Assembly (NCBI RefSeq): GCF_004010195.1
Contig: NC_057719.1
Span: 18,435,159-18,499,158, forward strand
Direction: 5' to 3'
From: Chiloscyllium plagiosum
Lineage: Eukaryota
Length of the DNA stretch: 64,000 bases
Under the pieces are notes generated by a model, which did not search any database, had not been told where the DNA came from, and saw only the letters and a program-made list of their open reading frames with translations. Positions 36,678-59,590 of the stretch are shown here, piece after piece. The number at the start of each line of letters is the position of its first letter. The first letter of the stretch is position 1. Position numbers and translations under genes: made by a program.

Positions 36678-37160
36678 ATGTGGGGGTGGACAAAGTCACA
36701 CAACACCAGGATATAGTCCAACAGGTATATTTGGAAGCACTCACTTTCGGAGCGCTCCGAGAGCTTGTGCTTCCAAATATACCGTTGGACTATACGTCGA
36801 GAGTGTGGTACTGGAAATGCACAATAGGTCAGGCAGCATCCAAGGAACAGGAGAATCAACATTTTCGGGCATAAGCTCATCATCAGGAATGAGACTTATG
36901 GGCCGGGGGGAGCCAAGAGTTGACTGGGGCATGTGTGACAGGTAGATGGAGGTGGGGGGGAAAGGGTGTCTCCCACCAGCCCACAAGCCTCATTCCTGAT
37001 GAAGGGCTTATGTCTGAAACATTGACTCTCCTGCTCCTCGGTTGCTGCCTGACCAGCTGTGCTTTTCCAGCATCACCCTCTCGACTCTGATCTCCAGCAT
37101 CTGCAGTCCTCACTTTCTCCTATTGGACTATAACCTGGTGTTGTGTGATTTTTAACTTGA
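36678..37160. mobile_element. Palindromic mini-element hosting a second palindromic Penelope pseudo-LTR insertion (36795-37122)
   Basis: Outer arms tcacacaacaccagg / cctggtgttgtgtga with TSD tactcataatg (36667-36677, 37161-37171); inner TSD ttggactata (36785-36794, 37123-37132). Confidence 0.8.
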
Positions 37161-37493: not shown

Positions 37494-37690
37494 CAAAAAC
37501 AGAAATTGCTGGAAACACTCAGCAGGTCTGGCAGCATCTGTGGAGAGAAATCAGAGGTAACATTTCTGGATTATGAGGAAGGTCACTCGACCCAAAACAT
37601 TAACTCTGATTTCTCTCCACAAGTGCTGCCAGACTTGCTGAGCTTTTCCAGCAATTTCTGTTTTTGTTTCTGATTTCCAGCATCCATGTA
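37494..37690. mobile_element. Palindromic Penelope-type pseudo-LTR mini-element (second family)
   Basis: caaaaacagaaattgctggaaa / tttccagcaatttctgtttttg arms around a degenerate tgaggaaggtcactcgacccaaaac core. Confidence 0.7.
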
Positions 37691-37790
37691 GAGTTTTGGT
37701 TTCAAGTTTTATCTGAAAGATTGCAGAATGGATTTTCATTCCTGAGACAGATAGCATGTGTGAGGAAATTTCCTATTTTGCCACACCCAT

Positions 37791-38186
37791 TGTATAGAAT
37801 GGGAAAATAGGCTGGGGAGGTTAATAATGATATTTGACCACTGCATGATCTTGAATGAATCCTGTGAACATTTCTTTACGGGCCCACAATGGTTTTTCTG
37901 AAGCTGCTTTTCTGTACTGGCTGTTTGTTACACTGTATAAGAGAGAGACTGTTTCATTCCAAGTGTTGGATTTTACCTTGGGCCAGGATCGCGAATGGTG
38001 CTTGGAATGAACCTAATCCTCCAGGGTCACCGACAGGCAGGACGGCGAATTGCTATTGTCGAGTCTTCGCGTAATCACATTTAACCGAATCTGAAAAGAT
38101 GGACAGGTTGGACTGAAGGGTCTGTTTCCATGCCGTACATCTCTATGATTCTATAACTGTTTGGATACACTCTGCGATCCAAGATA
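37791..38186 (+). repeat. ERV 5' LTR (contains a ~58-bp CR1 tail insertion at ~38098-38155 and a deletion)
   Basis: Starts TGTATAGAAT, ends gatccaagaTA; 14 mismatches to the 3' LTR over the first 93 nt by manual count. Confidence 0.9.
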
Positions 38187-38190
38187 TTTT

Positions 38191-38211
38191 AGGTGAGGAA
38201 GATGGGATTCG
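38191..38211 (+). promoter_or_regulatory. Primer-binding site, complementary to tRNA-Ser(GCU)
   Basis: aggtgaggaagatgggattcg vs recalled complement TGGCGACGAGGATGGGATTCG (17/21), just after the 5' LTR. Confidence 0.65.
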
Positions 38212-38751
38212 GGGAAATGTTTAAGGGAAGGGAAAGGCAACCTGATGCTTCGGAGGCCTTCTGGAGTATTCCAGGATGGAATGCAGGTCTGTAACGAACT
38301 AGATAGCACAATTAGGACCCCCGCAAGAATGGGGGATGGTCACAAATGGAAAGGGAGAGACGGGGGTTATTCATAAAGGCTGCCGTACATGAGTGCTTGC
38401 GGGAAGTGGGCTTCCTCAAAAGCAAGGATAGTATATTGTAAGTGGGATGGATATTGTTAACAGCTTTGCGTTCGATGTGTAGGGAATTGGGAGAGTGCCA
38501 GGCCAATAACTGGCAACTTGAGGCCACATTGATGTGGTAGAACAATGTAACATCACCCTAACAGAAGCAGCTAAGACAATGCAGGAGAGAGCCAAGAGGA
38601 TGGAGGAGAAACAGAATCTGATAGTTTGCCATCTGGCAATGGTACAACAGTGAAAGAGGATAAAATTGCACAATTGGAAAGGTGGCCCAGTCAAAATGCG
38701 CACATTATTTACCTCACGATGGGACCCTGACCATTGGGATGGAGACATTTA

Positions 38752-41306
38752 TAGAGCCATAGAGTCATAGAGATGTACAGCATGGAAACAGACCCTTCGG
38801 TCCAAAACAACCATGTCTAACAGATATCCCAACCCAATCTAGTCCCACCTGCCAGCACCCGGCCCATATCCCTCCAAACCCTTCCTATTCATATACCCAT
38901 CCAAATGCCTCTTAACTGTTGCAATTGTACCAGCCTCCACCACTTCCTCTGGCAGCTCATTCCATACACGTACCACCTTCTGTGTGAAAAGGTTGCCCCA
39001 TAGGTCTCTTTTAAATCTTTCACCTCTCACCCTAAACCTATGCCCTCTAGTTCTGGACTCCCCCACCCCAGGGAAAAGACTTTGCCTATTTATCCTACCC
39101 ATACCCTTCATAATTTTGTAAACCTCTATCAGGTCACCCCTCAGCCTCTGACGCTCCAGGGAAAACAGCCCCAGCCTGTTCAGCCTCTCCCAAAGCTCAA
39201 ATCCTCTAACCCTGGCAACATCTTTGTAAATCTTTTCTGAACCCTTTCAAGTTTCACAACATCTTTCCGATAGGAAGGAGAACAGAATTGCATGCAATAT
39301 TCCAACAGCAGCCTAACCAATGTTCTGTACAGCCGCAACATGACATCTCAACTCCTGTACTCAATACTCTGATCAATAAAGGAAAGCATACCAAACGCCT
39401 TCTTCACTATCCTATCTACCTGTGACTCCACTTTCAAAGAGCTATGAACCTGCACTCCAAGGTCTCTTTGTTCAGCAACACTCCCTAGGACCTTACCATT
39501 AAGTCCTGCTAAGATTTGCTTTCCCAAAATGCAGCACCTCGCATTTATCTGAATTAAACTCCATCTGCCATTTCTCAGCCCATTGGCCCATCTGGTCCAG
39601 ATCCTGTTGTAATCTGAGGTAACCCTCTTCGCTGTCCACTACACCTCCAATTTTGGTGTCATCTGNNNNNNNNNNNNNNNNNNNNNNNNNNNNNNNNNNN
39701 NNNNNNNNNNNNNNNNNNNNNNNNNNNNNNNNNNNNNNNNNNNNNNNNNNNNNNNNNNNNNNNNNNNCCATGCACAAAGCCATGTTGACTATCCTGAATC
39801 AGTCCTTGCCTTTCCAAATACATGTACATCCTGTCCCTCAGGATTCCCTCCAACAACTTGCCCACCACCGATGTCAGGCTCACTGGTCTATAGTTTCCTG
39901 GCTTGTCCTTACCACCCGTCTTAAACAGTGGCACCACGTTAGCCAACCTCCAGTCTTCTGGCACCTCACCTGTGACTATCGATGATACAAATATCTCAGC
40001 AAGAGGCCTAGCAATCACTTCTCTAGCTTCCCACAGAGTTCTTGGGTACACCTCATCAGGTCCTGGGGATTTATCCACTTTTATGCATTTAAAGACATCC
40101 AGCACTTCCTCCTCTGTAATATAGACATTTTGCAAGATGTCACCACCTATTTCCCTCCAGTCTATATCTTCCATATCCTTTTCCACAGTACATACTAATT
40201 TTCTGCGGCTCCACACAAAGGCCGCCTTGCTGATCTTTGAGGGGCCCAATTCTCCACCTAGTTACTCTCTTGCCCTCAATATATATTTACAAAAACTCTT
40301 TGGATTCTCCTTAATTCTGTTTGCCAAAGCTATCTTATGTCCCCTTTTGTCCTCCTGATTTCCCTCTTAAGTATACTCCTACTGCATTTATACTCTTCTA
40401 AGGATTCTCTTGATCTATTCTGTCTATACCTGATATGTGCTTCCTTCTTTTTGGTAACCAAAACCTCAATTTCTCTAGTCATCCAGCATTCCCTACAACT
40501 ACCAGTCTTACCTTTCACACGAACAAGAATATACTGTTTCTAGACTCTTGCGATCTCTTTTCTGAAGGCTTCCCATTGTTCAGCCCCCCCTTTACCTGCG
40601 AACATCTGTCCCCAATCAGCTTTCAAAAGTTCTTTCCTAATACCGTCAAAATTGGCCTTTCTCCAATTTAGAACTTCAACTTTTAGATCTGGTCTAAACT
40701 TTTCCATCACTATTTTAAAACGAATAGAATTATGGTCGCTGGCCCCAAAGTGCTCCCCCACTGACACCTCAGTCACCTGCCCTGCCTTATTTCCCAAGAG
40801 TAGGTCAAGTTTTGCACCTTCTCTCATTGGTACATCCACATACTGAATCAGAAAATTGTCTTGTACACACTTAACAAATTCCTCTCCATCTAAACCCTTA
40901 ACACTATGGCAGTCCCAGTCTATGTTTGGAAAGTTAAAATCCCCTACCATAACCACCCTATTTTTCTTATAGATAGCTGAGAACTCCTTACAAGTTTGTT
41001 TCTCAATTTCCCTCTGACTATTAGGGGGTCTATAATACAATCCCAATAAGGTGATCGTCCCTTTCTTATTTTTCAGTTCCACCCAAATAACTTCCCTGGA
41101 TGTATTTCCGGGAATATCCTCCCTCAGCACAGCTGTAATGCTATCCCTTATCAAAAATGCCACTCTTCCTCCTCTCTTGCCTCCCTTTCAGTCCTTCCTG
41201 TAGCATTTGTATCCTGGAACATTATCCTGCCCATCCCTGAGCCACGTTTCTGTAATTGCTATGATATCCCAGTCCCATATTCCTAACCATGCCCTGAGTT
41301 CATCTG
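38752..41306 (-). mobile_element. Relatively young CR1/HER1 LINE, ORF2 from endonuclease start to tail (spans an assembly gap)
   Basis: ORF 40540..41163 (YYRPPN, MVGDFNFPNIDW, LDLLL, SDHN); 39659..40249 (KSPGPD, NYRPVSLTS, SQHGF); DDTKIGG; (catagagt)n tail. Confidence 0.95.
39666..39767. other. Assembly gap (N run)
   Basis: Run of N within the CR1 RT domain. Confidence 1.
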
Positions 41307-41331
41307 AAATAAATAAGTAGACATACAGGAG

Positions 41332-41405
41332 CTTCCCTGGATGGGCTTGACCCACAAACCTTCTGGTTAACAGCCGAATGGGCTAATCAATTGCGCCACA
41401 GAGAT
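41332..41405 (-). pseudogene. tRNA-Asn(GTT) pseudogene / retrocopy
   Basis: Reverse complement ATCTCTGTGGCGCAATTGATTAGCCCATTCGGCT-GTT-AACCAGAAGGTTTGTGGGTCAAGCCCATCCAGGGAAG; 74 nt; 62/74 to recalled vertebrate tRNA-Asn; mutated B-box; no CCA. Confidence 0.88.
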
Positions 41406-42439
41406 TGCCATTTAGCTTTCATCTGATTCAGAGTATGAATGGATGGATGGGTAAGGGGATGCTCCACCTTCAGAGCCATCCTCAGGAAAGGGACTAATAG
41501 CACGACCCTTAATAATGAATAAGGCAAAACAGGTAGGGAGACAAAATCCACAGAATTCGAGAATAGTGAGAGATGACTCTCTGTCTGAATTATAGGATTT
41601 GGGGTTGCGCTTCAAGCAGAATTCAGGTGAGCCCTTGGTTGACATGGGCATGCGACCAGAATGCTGCCCATATCATGCTGAGTGTCACAGAGTGAGGGAA
41701 TCTGGGAGCATTAAATGCTGAGCCACATGTGAATAGCGCTTTTAGAAATGTAGGGCATACTGGATTGTTGTGGAATGCACTGACACTACCAGTAGGAAAC
41801 AAGTACCCTCCCCCGAAAGATTGGGAAGGTGATGTTGAAAATTGGGAGGGCATACCAGAAGGTATAAAAAAGTGAGGGATTTGGCTATGCGAGCGGGTTA
41901 TATTCTCCACAGTTTCAGGGTCTACACCAGAAAGCTTTCACAGCTGGAATGAGGAACCGGCTAATACGAAGTGGTGTGGGCTGGATGAGAGGTGCCCTGT
42001 TAGCCCTATTAGGGCCAGCTCACGGACAGGCAGTGGGACAAGTGTGTTTGCTATTCAGACAGTTAGAGGATGGAGAGGCTGGTAAGCAAACACCTGAACA
42101 AGTGATAAACAAGGACAACAACGTGGAGATAGGATGGGTTCAAAGGTGAAATAAAACATTACCAGAAGAGAAATGTTCATAGCATTATTGAAAGCAGGAA
42201 TAGAGAGGAGTAGGATAGATGGAATATCTGTGGATGCCAGTACACTATATGGAAGATGCACGGCTCTGCAAAGGATAAGGAAGTAAGAAAGAACTAAATC
42301 AGATGTGGAGGGAGGAAAGGAAACCACAGTAACTGTAGCCTAGCCTGGAAGAGGCTGGGCAGTTGTAGCAAACCAGTTAGCCAATTGATTAGGGCTGGGG
42401 TTAGGACTCTGGGGTCTTTATAAGGTCGTTTGGTGAGAT

Positions 42440-45400
42440 GTCCAGAGACTTGAGGCCTCATGTCCCTGCCACCGTTTATTCGAAACATCACATTACTAGA
42501 CACTGGGGCAGAGGTTACTATTATACATGGCAATCTACATAGACATACAGTGCTCAAAATGACTACGAAAAGACTTTGTTGGGTGGTCACACCAGCAATT
42601 AGAACAAATATTCAAATAGCCTTGGGGAATGGACTCCCACGAGTAGTCCCAATACTGATATCCAACATAGCAGAGAAAGATATCAGTATGGACCCATTGA
42701 GAGGTACCACCTTGCAAACCCCACTGGGCAAATTCTCTTTGGTATATAAGCTGTGACAGTTACTTTTGGCAAGGCAGAATGGGAACCCCTCATTATCCCT
42801 CCGTCCACATGGGTAGTTTCAATGAAACAGTATCGTATTCCAGGAGGACACAATTGGGGATAATATGCAGGGCCTGTTAGCTGCAGGGATTGTGATACAT
42901 GCAGTATCTGTGTGCAATAGCCCTGTGTGGTCTGTGAAGAAACCTGATGGAAGTTGACGAATGATGGTTGTTGACTGCCAGCTTAGCAAATATGCTCCTC
43001 CACTGTCGGTGGCTGTGCCTGATGTGGACACTGTTATAGAAATATGACAGTGGTATGCTATTATTGATCTAGCAAATGCCTTTTTTCTGGATACCGGTAG
43101 CCCCTGGAATCACAAGCTCAGTTTGTTTTTATGTGGGAATGTTGCCAATATACTTTCTGTTGGCCACCACAAGGATACCTACATAATACAACCTTATGCC
43201 ATGGGCTAGTAGCAAGGGACTTAGATATGTATTCACCATCCCCCCCTGCCAGAAATTTATGTAGCACATTATATTGATGATATCTTGACCCATGGACCAA
43301 TGGAAACCACGATGGCAGAAGCTCTAGCCATACTGGTGCAACCTATGCGAGACGGAGACGGAAAGGGAAACCAAAAAAGATACAGGGACCAACACAATCA
43401 GAGCAGGTTTTAGGCATTCAGTTGACAAAAGGGGATAGAGCCATCCCTGAAAAACTACGGAATAAAATACAAAAAATTGGCTGTTCCAATTGGCAAGACC
43501 GAGGCACAGAAATTTATAGGTCTGCTTGGATATTGGTGCAGACATATTCCTCACATAACTACATTACTAAGACCTTTACATGCCATTACTTGAAAGAAAG
43601 CTCAATTGAACAACAGGAAGCATTTCAGGCTGCTAAAAGAGGCCGTAGAATTGGTGCTGCCCCTGGCTTCTCAGAATACTGGCTTAGCCTTTGAATTACA
43701 AGTATCAGTATTACAAGATGTAACCACGTGGAGCTTATGGCAGAGACAAAAGGGGAAATCAATACCTTTGGGAGTCTGGTCTAGAAAAGTGACTGAGGCA
43801 GCTATGCATTACACAGCATTTGAAAAACAACTTCTGGCCAGCTACTGGGCCCTGTAGTCATAGAGTCATAGAGATGTACAGCATAGAAACAGACCTTCGG
43901 TCCAACCTGTCCACACCGACCAGATACCCCCCTAGTAGAAACTCAATGGTAGACGAGTGAGGACGCAGTGCTCTTCAGACTTGAGTTATCCATTCTGATA
44001 TGCTTGTTACCTGACATTGTGATCCACCAGGCCAGTAGAGCCTAATACAGCTCCACTGTAAAATGGAAATGGTACATAGTGATCCGAGAAAGGAAAAGAA
44101 GGGGATGCCAAACTCCATGAGTAAATAGCTGAATACTCACCAGGTGAACAATCTCCGAGTTCCACCTGGCCATACCTGCATCTCCTGTTCAATGGGGCAT
44201 TCCATTCGAACAACTGTCTGAAGATGCTCGTCACTGTGCTTGGTTCACTGATGGATCAGCCACCTGGAAGAGTGGCCAGAGGCAAGCAGCTGTGTTTAAT
44301 GCCTCCACACAAACGGTTATGAATAGTGAAGGAGATGGGGGATTGAGCCAATGAGCCGAATTAGCAGCTAGAGGAGGAGAGTCAGTTTATACTAACTTGT
44401 GGCCATAAAATGGCTGTATGGATGTCAACCTGGCAGTCACATGACTGGAAGATTGCTGGAAGGCCCCTGTGGGGAACAGAACTATGGAAACAAATATGGG
44501 TGAAGGCACAGTGCGTGGAAATCATTGTGTATCATTTTGCTGCCCAAATGAAGGATGGTTTGGAATCTGCTAACCACAGCAATATTGTGGATGGAATAGT
44601 AAATGCAGAACAGTTGAAGGTGCATCTGAAGAGTTCCACACTGGAAAATGGGCTCATGAAAAATCAGACATTTAGGGTATCAAGGCACTGTGCAATGGGC
44701 AAGAGATCAAGGTTTGCACTTAAGCACTGATCTGTGAAAGAACGCATTGGCAGTGTAAAATATGCCAAAAGGTAAACGTGTGTCACTGCCGATGAAGCCA
44801 ATGGCATAAATCAAACAAGAAAATCAGCCTGCTCAAATCTGGCAGATTGACCTCTACAACAATGATATCAATATCTGTTAACTGTCGTGGACACTTCCTC
44901 TGGGCTCATGTTAGCTCTCCCGACAACCAAAGAAAATTAGAGGAATAGTGGTAAAGGCCGAGAACAGTTGATATCCTACCATGGTGAACCATCAGAAATA
45001 CAATCAGATAACGTCTCACACTTTATAGGTCAACAGGTGTAGCAATCAGCTGCAAACAGTAAGATACATTGGATGTTCCACAATTCTTACTACCATCAAG
45101 CAGCTGGCCTTGTAGAATGAATGAATGGGTTATTAAAACAATAAATTAAATTATTGACCTCTAATCATACATTACAGGTGTGGCTCAAAGCGCTGATATA
45201 ATCTGAACAATCAGCCTCTGAAAGGAGGGATACCCATGAGTAGAATGTTTGAAGGAGGTAACTAGTCACAGCCTCCCAATAAACATGCAACATCCAATGA
45301 TCTTTGTGCAGGGGGAGGAATGCGGGTATACCACCCACAACACCCTTCTAAGTCTAGTGAGATACTTGCCTGTGGACAAGGTGATACCTACTGGATATTG

Positions 45401-45460
45401 ATAATGGGACAGGAAGTACAACAGTGTATAGACACGGGGAAGCTAACAAAAAGAGAGTGA
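42440..45460 (+). pseudogene. pol: ERV pro-pol remnant (PR-RT-RH-IN)
   Basis: LLDTGAEVTIIHG (~42493); QYRIPGG; NSPVWSVKKPDGS; IIDLANAFF; YIDD (43270-43281); YTAFEKQLLASYWAL; WFTDGSA; RPLWGTELWKQI; CKIC; QIWQID; IQSDN; QAAGLVE*MNGLLK. Confidence 0.9.
43855..43930 (-). mobile_element. Short CR1 3'-tail insertion within pol
   Basis: tagtcatagagtcatagagatgtacagcatagaaacagacc interrupts YWAL...VET. Confidence 0.85.
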
Positions 45461-45509
45461 GTTGTCAAAGATTATACCCTGAAAAGATATGATTTCTTCA
45501 CTGAACCAT

Positions 45510-47730
45510 GCCGATTGATTATGGATAGATGCTGCTGTGGATGACTTGCCAGTTGACATGGACAATGCATTTCCATGACTGATGTGTGGATATGGTGTGG
45601 ACAGTCCAAGAGACTAACAGAGTGCAGGACAATTTTACTTGTCACCCAGGACTTCGATGTGTCATCGGATACTATGTTACAGGTACGGCATGTTGGTTAT
45701 GGGTAGCATTGGAACAGAGTATGTTTACCGTGTCTAAAGGATACACAGTACAACTGCAAACTGCATAGCAAGCAGAAATGGCTTATAAGATATACAATAC
45801 AACTACACAGTTAATGAAAATAACCTGATTGTCATACAGGGTAAAGTTCAATACAAATGTACCGCAAAGGGTAAAAGAGACAAGGGTAAAAGGGTAAAAG
45901 GGTAAAAGAGCAGCACGGTGACACAGTGGTTAGCACTGCTGCCTCACAGCGCCAGAGACCTGGGTTCAATTCCCGCCTCAGGCGACTGACTGTGTGGAGT
46001 TTGCACATTCTCCCCGTGTCTGCGTGGGTTTCCTCCGGTGCTCCGGTTTCCTCCCACAGTCCAAAGATGTGCAGGTCAGGTGAATTGGCCATGCTAAATT
46101 GCCCGTACTGTTAGGTAAGGGGTAGATGTGTAGGGGTATGGGTGGGTGGCGCTTCGGCAGGGCGGTGTGGACTTGTTGGGCCGAAGGGCCTGTTTCCACA
46201 CTGTAAGTAATCTATTCTAATCTAAAGGACAATAAAAACCGTGTTAATTGCAGATCAATGGTATGGTTGTACCAACGCATCTGAAATAGTCAATGGGACA
46301 TAGATGATGGCCATATGGTCAGACCAGAAAACTAATCAACAGCAATTAGGGATGGCCCATGTTCAACGCCTCTACTCAACATGCACCAAAGTATTTGCAT
46401 CTCAAAATGTACTTAATCTCATGATATGGGTACAATATGAGTCAAAACCCGACGGGTGTAAAATCATACCTTTAGTTACGTGACTGCAAAAGACCAAGCT
46501 AAAGCAGGGCTTGGTACAATATTAGGAGGGCTAGGAACAGGCATTGGAGCATCGAATGCCATGCCTATTGAGACCTTACAAAACAAGATACAAAAGGTGG
46601 GTATCCTGATTGGAAATGCCATTAGGTCACAAAATGCTTGGGACAGAGGGTTAAATGGAAATATGTTATCTGGTTGGTTAATGCGATGGGAGTAACTAAA
46701 TAGAACGGAATGGGAATCATTTTACATGTCCCTATAACAGAATAGTTTCAATACTTATACGGTTTGGACGTTTCATGAAATTTCACATCCACTGTTCAGA
46801 GCAGAATTGAAACAAATAGCTCTGTCAGAATACAGTGGTAGTTAGGTGAACTTTTTCAAGTTTGCCAGATAACAATTGCAGATCAATCCCAATTTGCAAT
46901 ATACTACCTGTATTACAAAAGGGTGTAATTTTACGATGAGGATTATTAATGCTACCCATGCACAGAATTGGTGTAACTTTATTACTGTCCCTCATCTGTT
47001 TGGCCAGCAATTGTGGCTCCCAGAGATGAGAGGGAAGTAGATTGATGAGAGGAATCAAACTCACTGTGGGATTGATTGTCAGGAGTGGCCATTTGGTATG
47101 GTATGCCTACTCCACACCCCAGGATTTGAACAATACTCCCTTGAACATTCTGCAGGAACATGCACATAGCACTTATTCCATATAATTTCACAGTTATTCA
47201 TGAGACAAGACAAAAGCAGACTTGTATTACCAGTCCCCGCACCATTTATTTAGATGGCATCTGAAAGGATCCTCCAGTTAGTCATTATTATAAGGATATA
47301 TACACTAACTATGATCCCAAGTAGACAGATCAAATCAATTAGGGAAATGTGAAGATGTACAACATTATTGTACCATCTTTGGGGTGCAGAACCTTCCACC
47401 AGTTGTCAACTTGACTTAGTTGGAGCGCTTTCTCCATGAAAATGCTCATATTAGTCAGGAACTGACGACAAGGGGGTGAAATATACATTGAATGAAACTT
47501 GCTATGTCATATGCGGATGGACAGTTAACATGACTTGCTGATTCCATCACGGCCTTGACCATACATCACTGGTGGGATATATTTCGGGGTAGGTCCCCAA
47601 AGGCCATCATTAATTTGATGATTCACCCTATTGTTATTGTATTCGTATTGATGACAGTTATTTTCACTGTAGTTTTACTTGTCTGGTGTTAGTTCTATAC
47701 ATTTATTATATATTCCTGCGAGGCTATCAC
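45510..47730 (+). pseudogene. env: ERV env-like remnant
   Basis: Lies between integrase and PPT; Gly-rich hydrophobic GLGTILGGLGTGIGASN plus heptad-like IETLQNKIQKV (ORF 46480..46695); IHHWWDIF...HPIVIVFVLMTVIFTVVLLVWC membrane anchor at 47561-47692. Confidence 0.7.
45908..46226 (+). mobile_element. Young HE1-type SINE inserted in env
   Basis: Near-identical to 52611-52920 and 58147-58476; tRNA-like head and (tctaa)n tail. Confidence 0.92.
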
Positions 47731-47779
47731 TGATTTGTGCCTGCATTTTCAATCGTAACATGCGCTGTCAAATATCACC

Positions 47780-47789
47780 GGGGGTGGAT
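47780..47789 (+). promoter_or_regulatory. Polypurine tract
   Basis: gggggtggat directly before the 3' LTR TG, like the recalled ERV-L GGGGTGGA PPT. Confidence 0.8.
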
Positions 47790-48241
47790 TGTATAGAATG
47801 AGAAAATAGGTTGGGAAGGTAAATGATGATATGCGACAGCTGCATGACCCTGAATGAATCCTATGAATATTCCTTTACGGGCTGAAGACAACGGCAGCAG
47901 CTTGTTTTACTGTAGCTGTTTCTGTACTGCCTGTTTGTTATACTGTATAAGAGAGAGAGAGTTTTGTTCCAAGAGTTGGACTTTACCTCAGACTGGGATG
48001 GTGAACAGTACCAGGAACAAACCTAAGCCTCCAGACCAGCCGTCATCCAAGTGGCCCCCGACCGACAGAAGGGCCTAAGACTCATTGCTTTTTTCTCCTT
48101 GCTTTTCAATTTATTATTATTATCATTATTATTACTTAATAAACATCCACATTTAAGCAAATCGCTGTTGTCGAATCTTCACGTAACCACATTTAACCGA
48201 ATCAAAAAGAACTGTTTGGAGATCCTCTGTGATCCAAGACA
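47790..48241 (+). repeat. ERV 3' LTR
   Basis: TGTATAGAAT...gatccaagaCA; TATA-like tataag near 47946; AATAAA at 48138-48143; followed by cccaa. Confidence 0.9.
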
Positions 48242-48559
48242 CCCAATCGATCCAATTTGCGTTCAGTGGGGATTGGAATGAGGGAAGTGGGATGGGAAAG
48301 ATTGGGAGGATTCAAACTGCAGCCCCTGAACACAGGTCGCAAGGGCTGTTGAATGCTGTTTATAAGGCCCATCAGTTCCCGGGAATATCATTCCAGCTGT
48401 TTCCGGAAATTTTCAGTCTCTGCCCTACACACTACACCTCCACTCACTCACCCACTCCTCACCTTCCCTCCTTTCTCTCATGTCAACCTACGTCTCTATG
48501 TCCCTATATGGCCCTAAATCATCCTCAAGGTAATTTTTTGGCAAGTCCATGTCAACCTT

Positions 48560-54342: not shown

Positions 54343-56066
54343 AGTCATAGTCATAGAGTTGTACAAAATGGGAACAAGGGCTTCAGCCCAACTCGACCAT
54401 GTTGACCAATATTTTAAATTAATCTTGTCCCATTTGACAGCATTTGGCCCATATCCCTTCAAATCTTTGACTGAAAACAAGAAATGCTAGCGATCACAGC
54501 GGGTTAAGAAGCCATGTCAGCAGCATTGTTTTGTAAGGTGGCCTCATCCAAACAGATACAACATGGGTGAAGGAAGTGGGAGAATAAGATGGAATCCTTG
54601 CAGGATGTGGGGTGGGAAGAGCTGTAGTGAAGGTAGCTATGGGAGTCAGTGGCTGTGTAGTGGATGGCAGTGGATAGCTTATTCCCCGAAATGGACATGG
54701 AGAGATCAAGGAAAATAAGGGAAGAGTCAGAAATGGATGATATAGAAGTTTTAGAGGAGTAGAAATCGGAGGCAAAATGAACAAATCGTCCAAGGTCCAG
54801 GTGGCACCGAAACAGTTGTTGATTTACCGAGAAAAGAATTGTGGGAGGGGCCAGTGTAGGGCTGAAACAAAGATTGCTCCACATATCCCATAAAGAGGCA
54901 GGCATAACTGAGACCCATGCAGGTGCCCTTCGCCACACCTTTGACTTGGCAGAAGTGAAATGAATTAAAGAAAAAATTATTCAGTGAGAGAACAAGTTCA
55001 GTCAAGCTGAGGAGAGTGGTGGGGAATGGGAATGGTTCAGGCCACTGGTTGAGGAAGAATCCAAGGGCTCTCAGACCATCCTGGTGGGGAATTGAAGGAT
55101 AAAGGGGATGGACATCCATTGTGAACAGAACTGGAAATTGTCAACATGGTGGAGGGGATCAGACGTATCATGGATGCAAGTGGGCAGAGTCTGGACAAGT
55201 TGAGAGAGGATGGAGTCAAGGTAAGAGGAAATGAGTTCGGTAGGGCAGGAACAGGCTGATATGATGGGTCTACTGGGACAGTCTGATTTGTGGGTTTTGG
55301 AAGGAGTTAGAAGCAGACTCTCCAGGAGATTTATAAGGTTAGAGGCAGTGGAGGGAAGATCTCTGGAAGTAATGAGGTTGGTGATAGTCCTGGCAACAAT
55401 GGCTCTAAGCCCTTACTATTCATAGTACCATTTTGGCAAAGCCCTTCATCAGGAATTTCCTGATGAAGAACTTTTGCCCGAAACCTCGATTTTCCTGCTC
55501 CTCAGATGCTGCCTGACTTGCTGTGCTTTTCCAGCAACACACTCTCAACTCTAATCTTCAGCATCTGCAGTCCTGACTTTCACCTTCTTGTTTGTATATC
55601 CAGCCTCCATCACCTTCTCTGGCAGCTCATTCCATACACATTTTATCTTCTGTGTGAAAAAATTGCCTCTTGGGTTCCTTTTCAATCTTTCCCCCTCACC
55701 TTAAACCTATGCCTTTTAGTTTTGGACTCTTGGAAAAAGAACTTGTCTATTTACCCTATCCATGTCCCTCATGATTTTATAAATCTCTGTAAGGTCACAC
55801 CTCAGCCTCCAATGCTCTAGGGAAAACAGTGCCAGCCTATTCAGCCTTTCCCTATAGCTCAAACCCTCCAAACCTGGAAACATCCTTGCAAATCATTATT
55901 GTACCCTTTCAAGTTTAACAACATCTTTCTGAGAGCAGGGAAACCAGAGCTGAACGCAGTATTCCAAAAGTGGACTAGTCAATGTCCTGTATAGCCACAA
56001 CATGACCTCCCAGCCCCTCTAATCAATGCAGACCAATGAAGGCAAGCAATACCAAATGTCTTCACT
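54343..56066 (-). mobile_element. CR1 3' fragment split by a Penelope insertion and flanked by a ~79-bp direct repeat
   Basis: Tail at 54343-54470 continues at ~55590-56066; flanks 54264-54342 and 56067-56144 match. Confidence 0.8.
54470..55590 (-). mobile_element. Penelope-like element RT remnant with inverted pseudo-LTR
   Basis: ORFs 54751..55119 (MDVHPLYPSIPH...QVKGVAKGTCMGLSYACLFMGYVEQ) and 54504..54938 (IFLDLS...TDSHSYLHY); ttcatcaggaa-t-ttcctgatgaa inversion at ~55445-55467. Confidence 0.85.
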
Positions 56067-57519: not shown

Positions 57520-59590
57520 CTTGCATTGCTGCTGGTTTGATGTTGGCCAATGTCAAAGCAGGCCTCCTGTTTCTTCAGGGTTGTGGGATACCGCACCTCA
57601 GCAGCGACAGGACATGGTCGAGTGTATGGGCACACGGGCCATTGATCTGGTTGGGGGAATATGAGATTGCTGTTCCTCTGGCCTAGGAATCTGCTGTGAG
57701 AAGGCAGCTTTACCGTCTCTGAAGTGAAGGAGGTGGTGGGCGGTCACCTCCTCAAAGCAGATGCTACAGAAACGCCCCCCTGAGATGCCTTGGTGGTAAA
57801 GAGTGAATGACTGATAATCCAGCAGCAGTTCGGTGACGTCCAGGCCTACCACTCTGACTGGAGTCTTCAACTGCAATACGGATGGATGATCTGGAGGGGC
57901 TGGCAACACACTGGAAGCCATGATTCCTAATGGGAATGGTTAAAGTCACCAAGTTGCAGGATGTCTTCAGCACCCCTGCAGATGAAGGGTAAATACATCT
58001 GGTCACTGCCAGACGGGTCTATCCGTTCAAGGATAGATTTCCTGTTTGTGTCCTGCACTTTCTTGGTCAGATCCACCAATGCCAAGCCGGTGTTCTTCTC
58101 TGACCACTACCTCCTGCTGGCCGACTGTCACCTACAGGACAACTGTGGGCGGCACGGTGGCACAGTGGTTAGCACTGCTGCCTCACAGCGCCAGAGACCC
58201 GGGTTCAATTCCCGCCTTAGGCGACTGACTGTGTGGAGTTTGCACATTCTCCCTGTGTCTGCGTGGGTTTTCTCTGGATGCTCTGGTTTCCTCCCACAGT
58301 CCAAAAATGTGCAGGTTAGGTGAATTGGCCAGGCTAAATTGACCATAGTGTTAGGTGCAGGGGTAAATGTAAGGGAATGGGTCTGGGTGGGTTGCTCTTT
58401 GGCGGATCAGTGTGGACTTGTTGGGCTGAAGGGCCTGTTTCCATGTTGTAAGTAATCTAATCTAATCTAAAAAAAACAGTGGGTCAGCCAGGCAACGTGG
58501 AGACTGAACGTGAGACCACTGACTCTAGAAAACACTGAGGAGTGCAAAAGGGATTACACATTGGAGAACTGTGAAGCTCCTCTTTGAGTCTCCAGCAGAT
58601 TTGTGGGAAACAGTCAAGGGAAACGTCAAGTGGTTCATTATCTTCAAAGGTGTTCAGAAGGCAAGAGAGAAAGGCTAATGAGGAAAACTATCCAAACTCC
58701 AGGAGAGCATGCAGAACTATTCCTGCTGAAGACCATGGGGATCAATGTCACAGAGGATCCCAAGGAGGTGAAGAGCCAGCGAGTCTCACTCTTTGCCTCA
58801 GAGCTCTCTAAGACCCTGCTGGATAAGGAGAGGGTGGATCCCCTCGGGTTGTTCCCTGAGCAGATTTTCAAAATCAAAGAATGCTTCATCACCAGAACTT
58901 TCCAACAAGCACCAAGACATCGCCTGGCTGGTGGTGAGAAGGGAGAGAACAGTCAGATCCTTCATGCACGCCCAGACTGTGTGCATCACCACACACAGGA
59001 GATGGGATTAGAAACTGTCACACATTTCCTGCTGGAATGTGCCTTTGCAAAGGACGTCTGGAGAGAGATGCAGTGGTTTTTGACAAGGTTCGTCCTGAGC
59101 AGTTCCGTGACGTAGGACTCTTGCTGTCCCGTCTGTTCCCCAGGACGCACACCAAGACAAACATTGACTGTGCCTGGAGCACCATTGACTTGGTGAAAGA
59201 CACTCTTTGATCTGCCCAAAACTTGTTGATCTTCAAGACCAAGGTGTTGACTCGAACCAAGTCTTCCAACCTGGCATATGCCCAGGTCTAGGACTACATA
59301 CTGAGGGACACACTAAAGCTTGGGGCAGCTGCTGCCAAAGCACAGTGGGGAAAGACCATCTAAGATCTTTCTGTCAAAGTTAAATGGAGGTCCTTTCAGT
59401 TATCGAAGCTCCCCAATGCCTCAAATATATGTAAATATAGTTGTGCACCAGGCAGAAAAGCCTTGGTATGTTTGTTACAGTCAAATTCCAGTGTCTATTT
59501 CCTCGTGCTACTGCACAGAACTGAACTGCTTCAGTGACTATGCATGTATTTAAAGATTTTTTTATGAATAAAATATATTTTTGAAATAAA
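57520..59590 (+). mobile_element. Internally deleted Tx1/L1-clade LINE ORF2 remnant
   Basis: Endonuclease LLFLQGCG..., SRIDFLFVS...FFSDH; C-terminal Zn-finger ETVTHFLLECAFAKDVW; aataaa-rich end; most RT missing. Confidence 0.75.
58147..58476 (+). mobile_element. Young HE1-type SINE nested in Tx1 element
   Basis: gggcggcacggtggcacagtggttagc head; (tctaa)n tail; TSD-like aac(t/a)gtggg. Confidence 0.92.

Follow-up and report, generated by a model that had tools for sequence, protein, structure and literature searches.

In a window of 64,000 nucleotides (nt) from the genome of the shark Chiloscyllium plagiosum (contig NC_057719.1, positions 18,435,159 to 18,499,158), we have characterized an endogenous retrovirus (ERV) that is a full-length but long-dead, ERV-L-like provirus and that, by its anatomy, is neither an ERV-L proper nor an ERV-S proper. 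It comprises two long terminal repeats (LTRs), a putative primer-binding site (PBS), gag and pro-pol genes, an env-like region and a polypurine tract (PPT), and is flanked by a target-site duplication (TSD) (Table 1). An earlier note on this DNA had described it as a complete, ancient class III provirus of a possibly undescribed lineage. The word complete holds for the layout and not for the coding content, given that both gag and pol are disrupted, that none of the three frames of the env-like region is free of stops and that the 5' LTR is missing 84 nt.

Table 1. Features of the provirus, in coordinates of the 64,000-nt window
Feature	Position	Strand	Remarks
Left TSD	37786..37790	+	4/5 match to right copy
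5' LTR	37791..38186	+	396 nt, with a 55-nt repeat insert, without an 84-nt stretch of the 3' LTR
Short insert, 3' tail of a local long/short interspersed nuclear element (LINE/SINE) repeat family	38100..38155	-	inverted repeats, LTR alignment gap
Putative PBS, complementary to tRNA 3' end	38191..38208	+	
gag, 5' part	38235..38752	+	broken; WDP..WDGDI; 32% identical to stingray ERV Gag
Nested LINE fragment	38752..41409	-	endonuclease domain and reverse transcriptase (RT) pieces; 102-N assembly gap at 39666-39767
gag, 3' part	41410..42388	+	broken; without CCHC knuckle; ends in TGA
pro-pol	42389..45460	+	broken; protease DTG, RT YIDD at 43270, tether, RNase H, integrase; without dUTPase
Short repeat insert within pol	43855..43930	+	
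env-like region	45461..47779	+	broken; Gly-rich hydrophobic peptide, Cys/N-glycosylation-rich stretch, candidate anchor at about 47594-47690
SINE-like insert in env-like region	about 45908..46226	+	read from sequence; bounds from the earlier note
PPT	47780..47789	+	short, purine-rich
3' LTR	47790..48241	+	452 nt, TGT...ACA, TATAA at 47946, AATAAA at 48138
Right TSD	48242..48246	+	

The two LTRs share an ungapped repeat of 95 nt that is 85% identical and has only these two copies within the window. Over their full length they are identical at 277 of 337 aligned columns (82.2%), with 39 transitions and 21 transversions. The Kimura two-parameter (K2P) distance is 0.207 (bootstrap 0.15-0.26), or 0.19 without CpG sites and 0.21-0.27 over four gap settings. 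The LTRs also differ by indels of 84, 18 and 10 nt, and the sole AATAAA sits in the 84-nt stretch that is missing from the 5' LTR. Both begin with TGT; the 3' LTR ends in ACA and the 5' LTR in ATA. The flanks, CCCAT and CCCAA, are identical at four of five positions, and the purine-rich tract stands directly before the 3' LTR. The LTR pair, the TSD and the PPT of the earlier note were all confirmed. TGT...ACA ends, a 5-bp TSD, YIDD and the lack of a Cys-His box are described as class III/ERV-L features (PMC8278194). The ends are exact here in the 3' LTR, with the ATA and the single TSD mismatch as departures.

The putative tRNA-complementary site starts 4 nt 3' of the 5' LTR. It agrees at 14 of 18 positions with the end of vertebrate tRNA-Ser(GCU), the isotype proposed in the earlier note, and Ser is a candidate primer; phage or bacterial tRNAs called Asp, Cys or 'Stop', which are of the wrong kingdom for this host, agree at 14-16 of 18 positions. 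An Rfam scan of 37700-39600 returned two chance matches only.

The coding motifs listed in the earlier note (gag WDP..WDGDI, YIDD, WQID and QAAGLVE/MNGLLK) were all found in three-frame translations, the YIDD active site being that of class III, and Pfam matched RT_RNaseH_2 (E 6e-9) and rve (E 5.5e-7) in pol. The intact but distant Gag-Pol of a stingray, P0184, served as guide for reading the broken frames. Identity to it was 32% in gag on either side of the LINE, 50% in protease-RT and 41% in RNase H-integrase. Relative to this guide, gag and pol have accumulated an estimated 28 or so frameshifts and 19 stops over 1,367 aligned positions. Both genes are dead, and no intact protein is made from them now. 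The gag stop is in the same frame as the onward pro-pol leader, which fits readthrough as in XtERV-S, and Gag-Pol may have been made by readthrough of that stop. Gag is Fv1-related and without a Cys-His box, as in class III, and matches stingray proteins named 'Friend virus susceptibility protein 1-like' in RefSeq; no CCHC zinc knuckle was found in the six frames scanned, although decay could hide one. After the integrase core there is a spacer of 25 codons, compared with 30 residues in the stingray protein and 157-159 in three dUTPase-bearing relatives. No dUTPase match was found in this spacer, and its length implies that the element has none.

A search with the pol frame gave 19 matches, with 14 proteins at E 1e-45 or better. 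The relatives came from stingray, caecilians, frogs, bichir, killifish, contigs and a mouse cluster with Gm52800; a search of representatives added turtle, bird and white shark proteins, and related RefSeq Pol proteins are present for red stingray and white shark. RT identity was 53-54% to stingray P0184 and 46-48% to mouse P0015, against 28-32% to foamy, epsilon, gamma and snakehead-type rows. Phylogenetic trees were constructed from RT plus connection (about 330 columns) under LG+G4. At least 85% of this region was covered by 114 of 220 proteins, and leaving out near-duplicates and most outgroups gave trees of 58, 46 and 32 rows. The 58-row tree was a quick one in which the element row was stingray-guided; conclusions were drawn from the 46- and 32-row trees, for which the mouse protein guided the reading of the element, to avoid bias. 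Reference retroviruses were taken from IMG/VR. L056 is prototype foamy virus by PDB match; the other reference labels, such as L041 as SnRV, are putative assignments from length and layout, and P0015 is presumably MuERV-L (its cluster holds Mus Gm52800).

In both careful trees the element lay within a 23-row clade (support 100/100) together with the mouse ERV-L-type Pol P0015 and stingray, bichir, killifish, amphibian, turtle and bird rows. Its sister was a pair of stingray rows (97/77 and 98/90). The element therefore groups as class III (clade Huo) does, with ERV-L Pol and apart from gamma, epsilon, foamy, snakehead and Gypsy rows. In approximately unbiased (AU) tests, three alternative groupings of the element were rejected: that with the white shark Pol at p 1.5e-4, that with two Gypsy-like outgroups at p 3e-7 and that with the 10,688-nt snakehead-type virus at p 5e-59. 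The trees and tests support assignment of the element to class III, related to ERV-L/ERV-S, as the earlier note had proposed; the RT/integrase tree that it had called for, run here with RT, showed no grouping with Gypsy, gamma or epsilon rows.

Several other relatives deserve mention. The white shark Pol (P0247/P0024; XP_041058168.1, XP_041060598.1) groups with killifish and not with the stingray or the element. Elasmobranchs thus hold at least two ERV-L-related sublineages, and the grouping hints at host switching from sharks to bony fish or the reverse. Long open Gag-Pol frames are present in several of the 13 RefSeq models that make up the P0003/P0184 cluster of Hemitrygon akajei, and several of the models are annotated as Fv1-like; together they point to a young, dUTPase-less class III stingray family. 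The metagenome contigs L064 and L065 carry long open ERV-L-related Gag-Pol that has about 40% identity to the Pol of stingray, mouse and killifish, with no env-sized open reading frame (ORF) in the DNA examined. Two Logan proteins, P0033 and P0040, of which one is on an 11.4-kb contig, pair on a long branch within the ERV-L-related clade.

A family of this kind has been catalogued in another shark. Xu et al. (2018) reported 349 whale shark ERV loci in four families (PMC6001957). Their S2 Data hold Rh_ty_ERV3, a 5,719-nt family sequence that starts mid-gag, and in their S2 Fig its label directly precedes No_fu_ERV1, HERVL, Murine_ERVL and HERVS. By eye, window positions 41420-41619 match the first 200 bases of Rh_ty_ERV3 at 181 of 200 positions without a gap, and its printed protein can be followed along the window's gag, across the stop and to the start of pro. 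This match of about 90% to a whale shark family also supports the shark host given in the earlier note. The suggestion of an undescribed lineage must consequently be given up, a match to a catalogued shark family being what the earlier note itself had said would end the novelty. We are confident that the provirus is a dead class III (ERV-L/ERV-S-related) element, likely a copy of Rh_ty_ERV3 and likely the outcome of one ancestral shark germ-line entry, since decayed. Considered as a provirus it is unremarkable, a single decayed member of a shark family already catalogued. The locus nonetheless adds LTR, PBS and TSD anatomy to Rh_ty_ERV3 and ties that family to the dUTPase-less stingray lineage, distinct from the second lineage in white shark.

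Clade III accounts for the majority of cartilaginous fish ERV RT matches (2,843 vs 2,018 for clade I in six genomes; PMC11089739 Table 2), and elephant shark has snakehead-like and epsilon-like lineages (Han 2015, PMC4422223). A survey of bird ERVs also screened 13 cartilaginous fish genomes (PMC12287698), and its supplements may list the family too. A term search of the main text of PMC6001957 found no mention of Rh_ty_ERV3 or its env; the remainder of the family sequence may include env. The Rh_ty_ERV3 entry starts about 10 bases from the LINE break in gag (window 41409-41420), which may be coincidence, may reflect the limit of a search or may mean that the whale shark seed copy is broken at the same site.

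The sole lead worth following in this provirus is the env-like region, which the earlier note had recognized and which extends for about 2.0 kb, besides the SINE, from the pol stop (45460) to the PPT. The main frame has a hydrophobic peptide rich in Gly near 46504 and a heptad-like stretch, and 342 of its codons hold 12 Cys and 5 N-glycosylation sites. Over 776 codons it contains 31 stops, against 37 and 47 in the other frames, and 10 N-glycosylation sites, against 5 and 6. The peptide is likely a fusion peptide. A candidate membrane anchor (hydropathy 3.1) lies in a different frame just before the PPT, about 369 codons beyond the peptide. Corresponding spans in the Env proteins compared were 144-164 residues (four gamma-type), 133-137 (two delta), 354-359 (snakehead-type) and 384-390 (four foamy). 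Within the 369 codons before the anchor we found neither an immunosuppressive domain (ISD) nor a CX6CC motif, and no window repeat is inserted there; motifs may in principle have decayed, yet their loss would not explain the length of the span. The region is likely an envelope gene, shaped unlike those reported for relatives, and we regard a long-ectodomain, non-gamma env as its probable identity. Only tentatively do we propose that a non-gamma env with a long fusion subunit was the native env of ERV-L/ERV-S, lost or swapped for a gamma-type one in tetrapod members. If true, this would bear on whether the ERV-L/S lineage began enveloped with its own fusion protein.

Some observations count against this view of the region. 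There is no intact furin site before the hydrophobic peptide, the region does have a CX6CC motif close to its start (45509), and the homology tests all came back empty. Homologue searches retained 0 of 807 candidates for the main frame and 0 of 15 for the anchor-proximal part. Pfam gave no domain, PDB sequences gave one chance match, and an Atlas search with a 52-aa env ORF gave no match. The best tblastn hit of 32 retroviral Env proteins to the region had E 0.5, hhalign scores against six Env groups (14.6-20.6) fell within those of shuffled controls (13-24), and none of the 16 metagenome loci checked held an env homologue. A single-sequence AlphaFold model was unusable (pLDDT 31.8), and no open-access paper was found on the env of a Rh_ty_ERV3-type family. 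Owing to the decay of the gene, these blanks are weak evidence. They would also suit a decayed gamma-type env or an unrelated captured sequence, an alternative that we consider possible but doubtful. All class III env detected by Vargiu et al. (2016) were of class I type, the original HERV-L env being unidentified, 'if it ever existed' (PMC4724089), and the transmembrane subunit (TM) of XtERV-S is gamma-type (PMC8278194). A second hydrophobic stretch, at 46940 in another frame, could also speak for that alternative. It is opposed by the strong anchor directly before the PPT, by the concentration of fewest stops and most N-glycosylation sites in one frame, by the absence of CX6CC/ISD-like motifs and window repeats before the anchor, and by the position of the CX6CC at 45509, about 700 codons from the anchor and unlike that in gamma TM. 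A long-ectodomain env remains our preferred reading of the region.

The great age claimed in the earlier note stands as an old insertion, given the K2P distance and its bootstrap range, and fails as a figure in years, for published shark rates give implausible dates. At the 2.2e-10 per year assumed by Han 2015 (PMC4422223), distances of 0.17-0.27 would correspond to about 390-610 million years (My). The epaulette shark pedigree rate of 7e-10 per generation (PMC10587355) would give about 150 million generations, which we likewise rejected. With rates assumed at 0.5-1e-9 per year the age would be about 105-210 My, as an illustration only; the insertion is plausibly over 100 My old if these uncalibrated rates apply. 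Half the LTR distance, a decay of about 10% per LTR, agrees with the internal distance of about 10% from Rh_ty_ERV3. Of the 31-mers sampled, 25-30% were present in seven DNA runs of a second organism (three studies) and 63-87% in eight runs of the first, in keeping with an inherited copy at about 96-97% identity; shares of 0.14 in organism C and 0.15-0.17 in two organism B rows were not used. No RNA runs were among the runs listed as holding the sampled words. The two LTRs could instead derive from different insertions, in a recombinant provirus whose 18% LTR difference would be silent on age. The imperfect TSD and the LTR indels favor such an origin, but we consider it improbable, as one mismatch in five fits about 10% decay per copy and the internal region has diverged from the family sequence to the same degree.

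Certain limits weigh against our overall interpretation, a decayed class III provirus of the Rh_ty_ERV3 family. The trees contain neither HERV-L nor HERV-S, ERV-L being represented by one mouse protein, and branch order among the mouse, stingray, fish and amphibian rows is mostly weak. The comparison with Rh_ty_ERV3 covers the first 400 of 5,719 bases, 200 of them counted by eye, and S2 Fig of PMC6001957 enters as an order of labels and not as a drawn tree. The second organism contributes word shares, which make its copy a putative ortholog, and the TSD mismatch leaves some room for the recombinant just considered. A comparison confined to 400 bases and 400 residues, together with the frequency of mosaic ERVs (PMC4724089), also leaves room for a separate, undescribed class III lineage that shares only a gag segment with Rh_ty_ERV3, e.g. 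by recombination. This we judge very unlikely, since the Rh_ty_ERV3 protein follows the window's gag, gag stop and pro start, and its position in the RT tree of Xu et al. is that of the element in our own. A Gypsy/Metaviridae or gamma/epsilon identity is refuted to near certainty by the RT trees, the AU test and ERV-L-type matches of E 1e-45 to 1e-68 vs 1e-7 or weaker for Gypsy-like proteins, even though the best phmmer match among solved structures is Ty3 RT (E 4.6e-9), level with foamy and murine leukemia virus RT.

The decayed shark provirus can be compared with several known systems. With Rh_ty_ERV3 it shares gag motifs, the position of the gag stop and a place beside ERV-L/HERV-S; both LTRs, the TSD, the PBS and 5' gag are known from the present locus beyond the published entry. 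The closest proteins are the red stingray Gag-Pol XP_072898008.1, XP_072891825.1 and XP_072911374.1, the sister in RT. Those ERVs likewise lack dUTPase and have a short post-integrase spacer, but their long open frames and 13-model RefSeq cluster mark them as much younger. MuERV-L and HERV-L resemble the element in RT clade, Fv1-like Gag without zinc knuckle, YIDD, 5-bp TSD and a single frame for gag and pol, whereas in them the integrase is followed by a dUTPase (the spacer in P0015 has 157 residues) and env is missing, the opposite of the shark element on both counts. HERV-S and XtERV-S also combine class III gag-pol with env. HERV-S is without dUTPase (PMC4724089), and in XtERV-S the PBS is of Ser type, the LTR ends are TGT/ACA and the TSD is 5 bp long (PMC8278194). 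Their env, however, is gamma-type (class I), with ISD and CX6CC in XtERV-S, motifs that are absent from the anchor-proximal span of the shark element, and XtERV-S has the dUTPase that the shark element lacks. Snakehead and foamy Env share with the region a long span from cleavage site to anchor and the lack of CX6CC, but show no sequence or profile similarity to it, and their RT is excluded as sister. The element does not belong with SnRV-like viruses, as its RT is not sister to the snakehead-type L041 and it has no Gag zinc knuckle, nor with foamy viruses, as its RT lies outside spumaviruses and the env-like region extends up to the PPT, which leaves no space for accessory ORFs.

In life, such an element would have been reverse transcribed from a host tRNA primer bound just 3' of the 5' LTR. 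Its Gag-Pol would have come from readthrough of the gag stop, the mode of expression reported for XtERV-S (PMC8278194). The integrase would have made the 5-bp duplication, and an envelope would have allowed spread from cell to cell. The four later insertions and the breaks in gag and pol are observed directly.

These four nested inserts are those that the earlier note had marked. The insert in the 5' LTR coincides with a 55-nt alignment gap, and its stretch has about six further copies in the window. The LINE fragment, with its endonuclease domain, is presumably CR1/L2-like. The repeat in pol has six further copies in the window, and the fourth insert, SINE-like by reading, is presumably a tRNA-derived shark SINE. 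Elsewhere in the window, short ORFs at 948-1403, 54504-54980 and 58588-59115 are, by their look, presumably remnants of Penelope-type and Tx1-type retrotransposons. Just upstream of the provirus lie long, nested inverted repeats (36692-37152 and 37494-37666) with arms of 34-72 nt that are 81-91% complementary, likely palindromic non-autonomous repeats.

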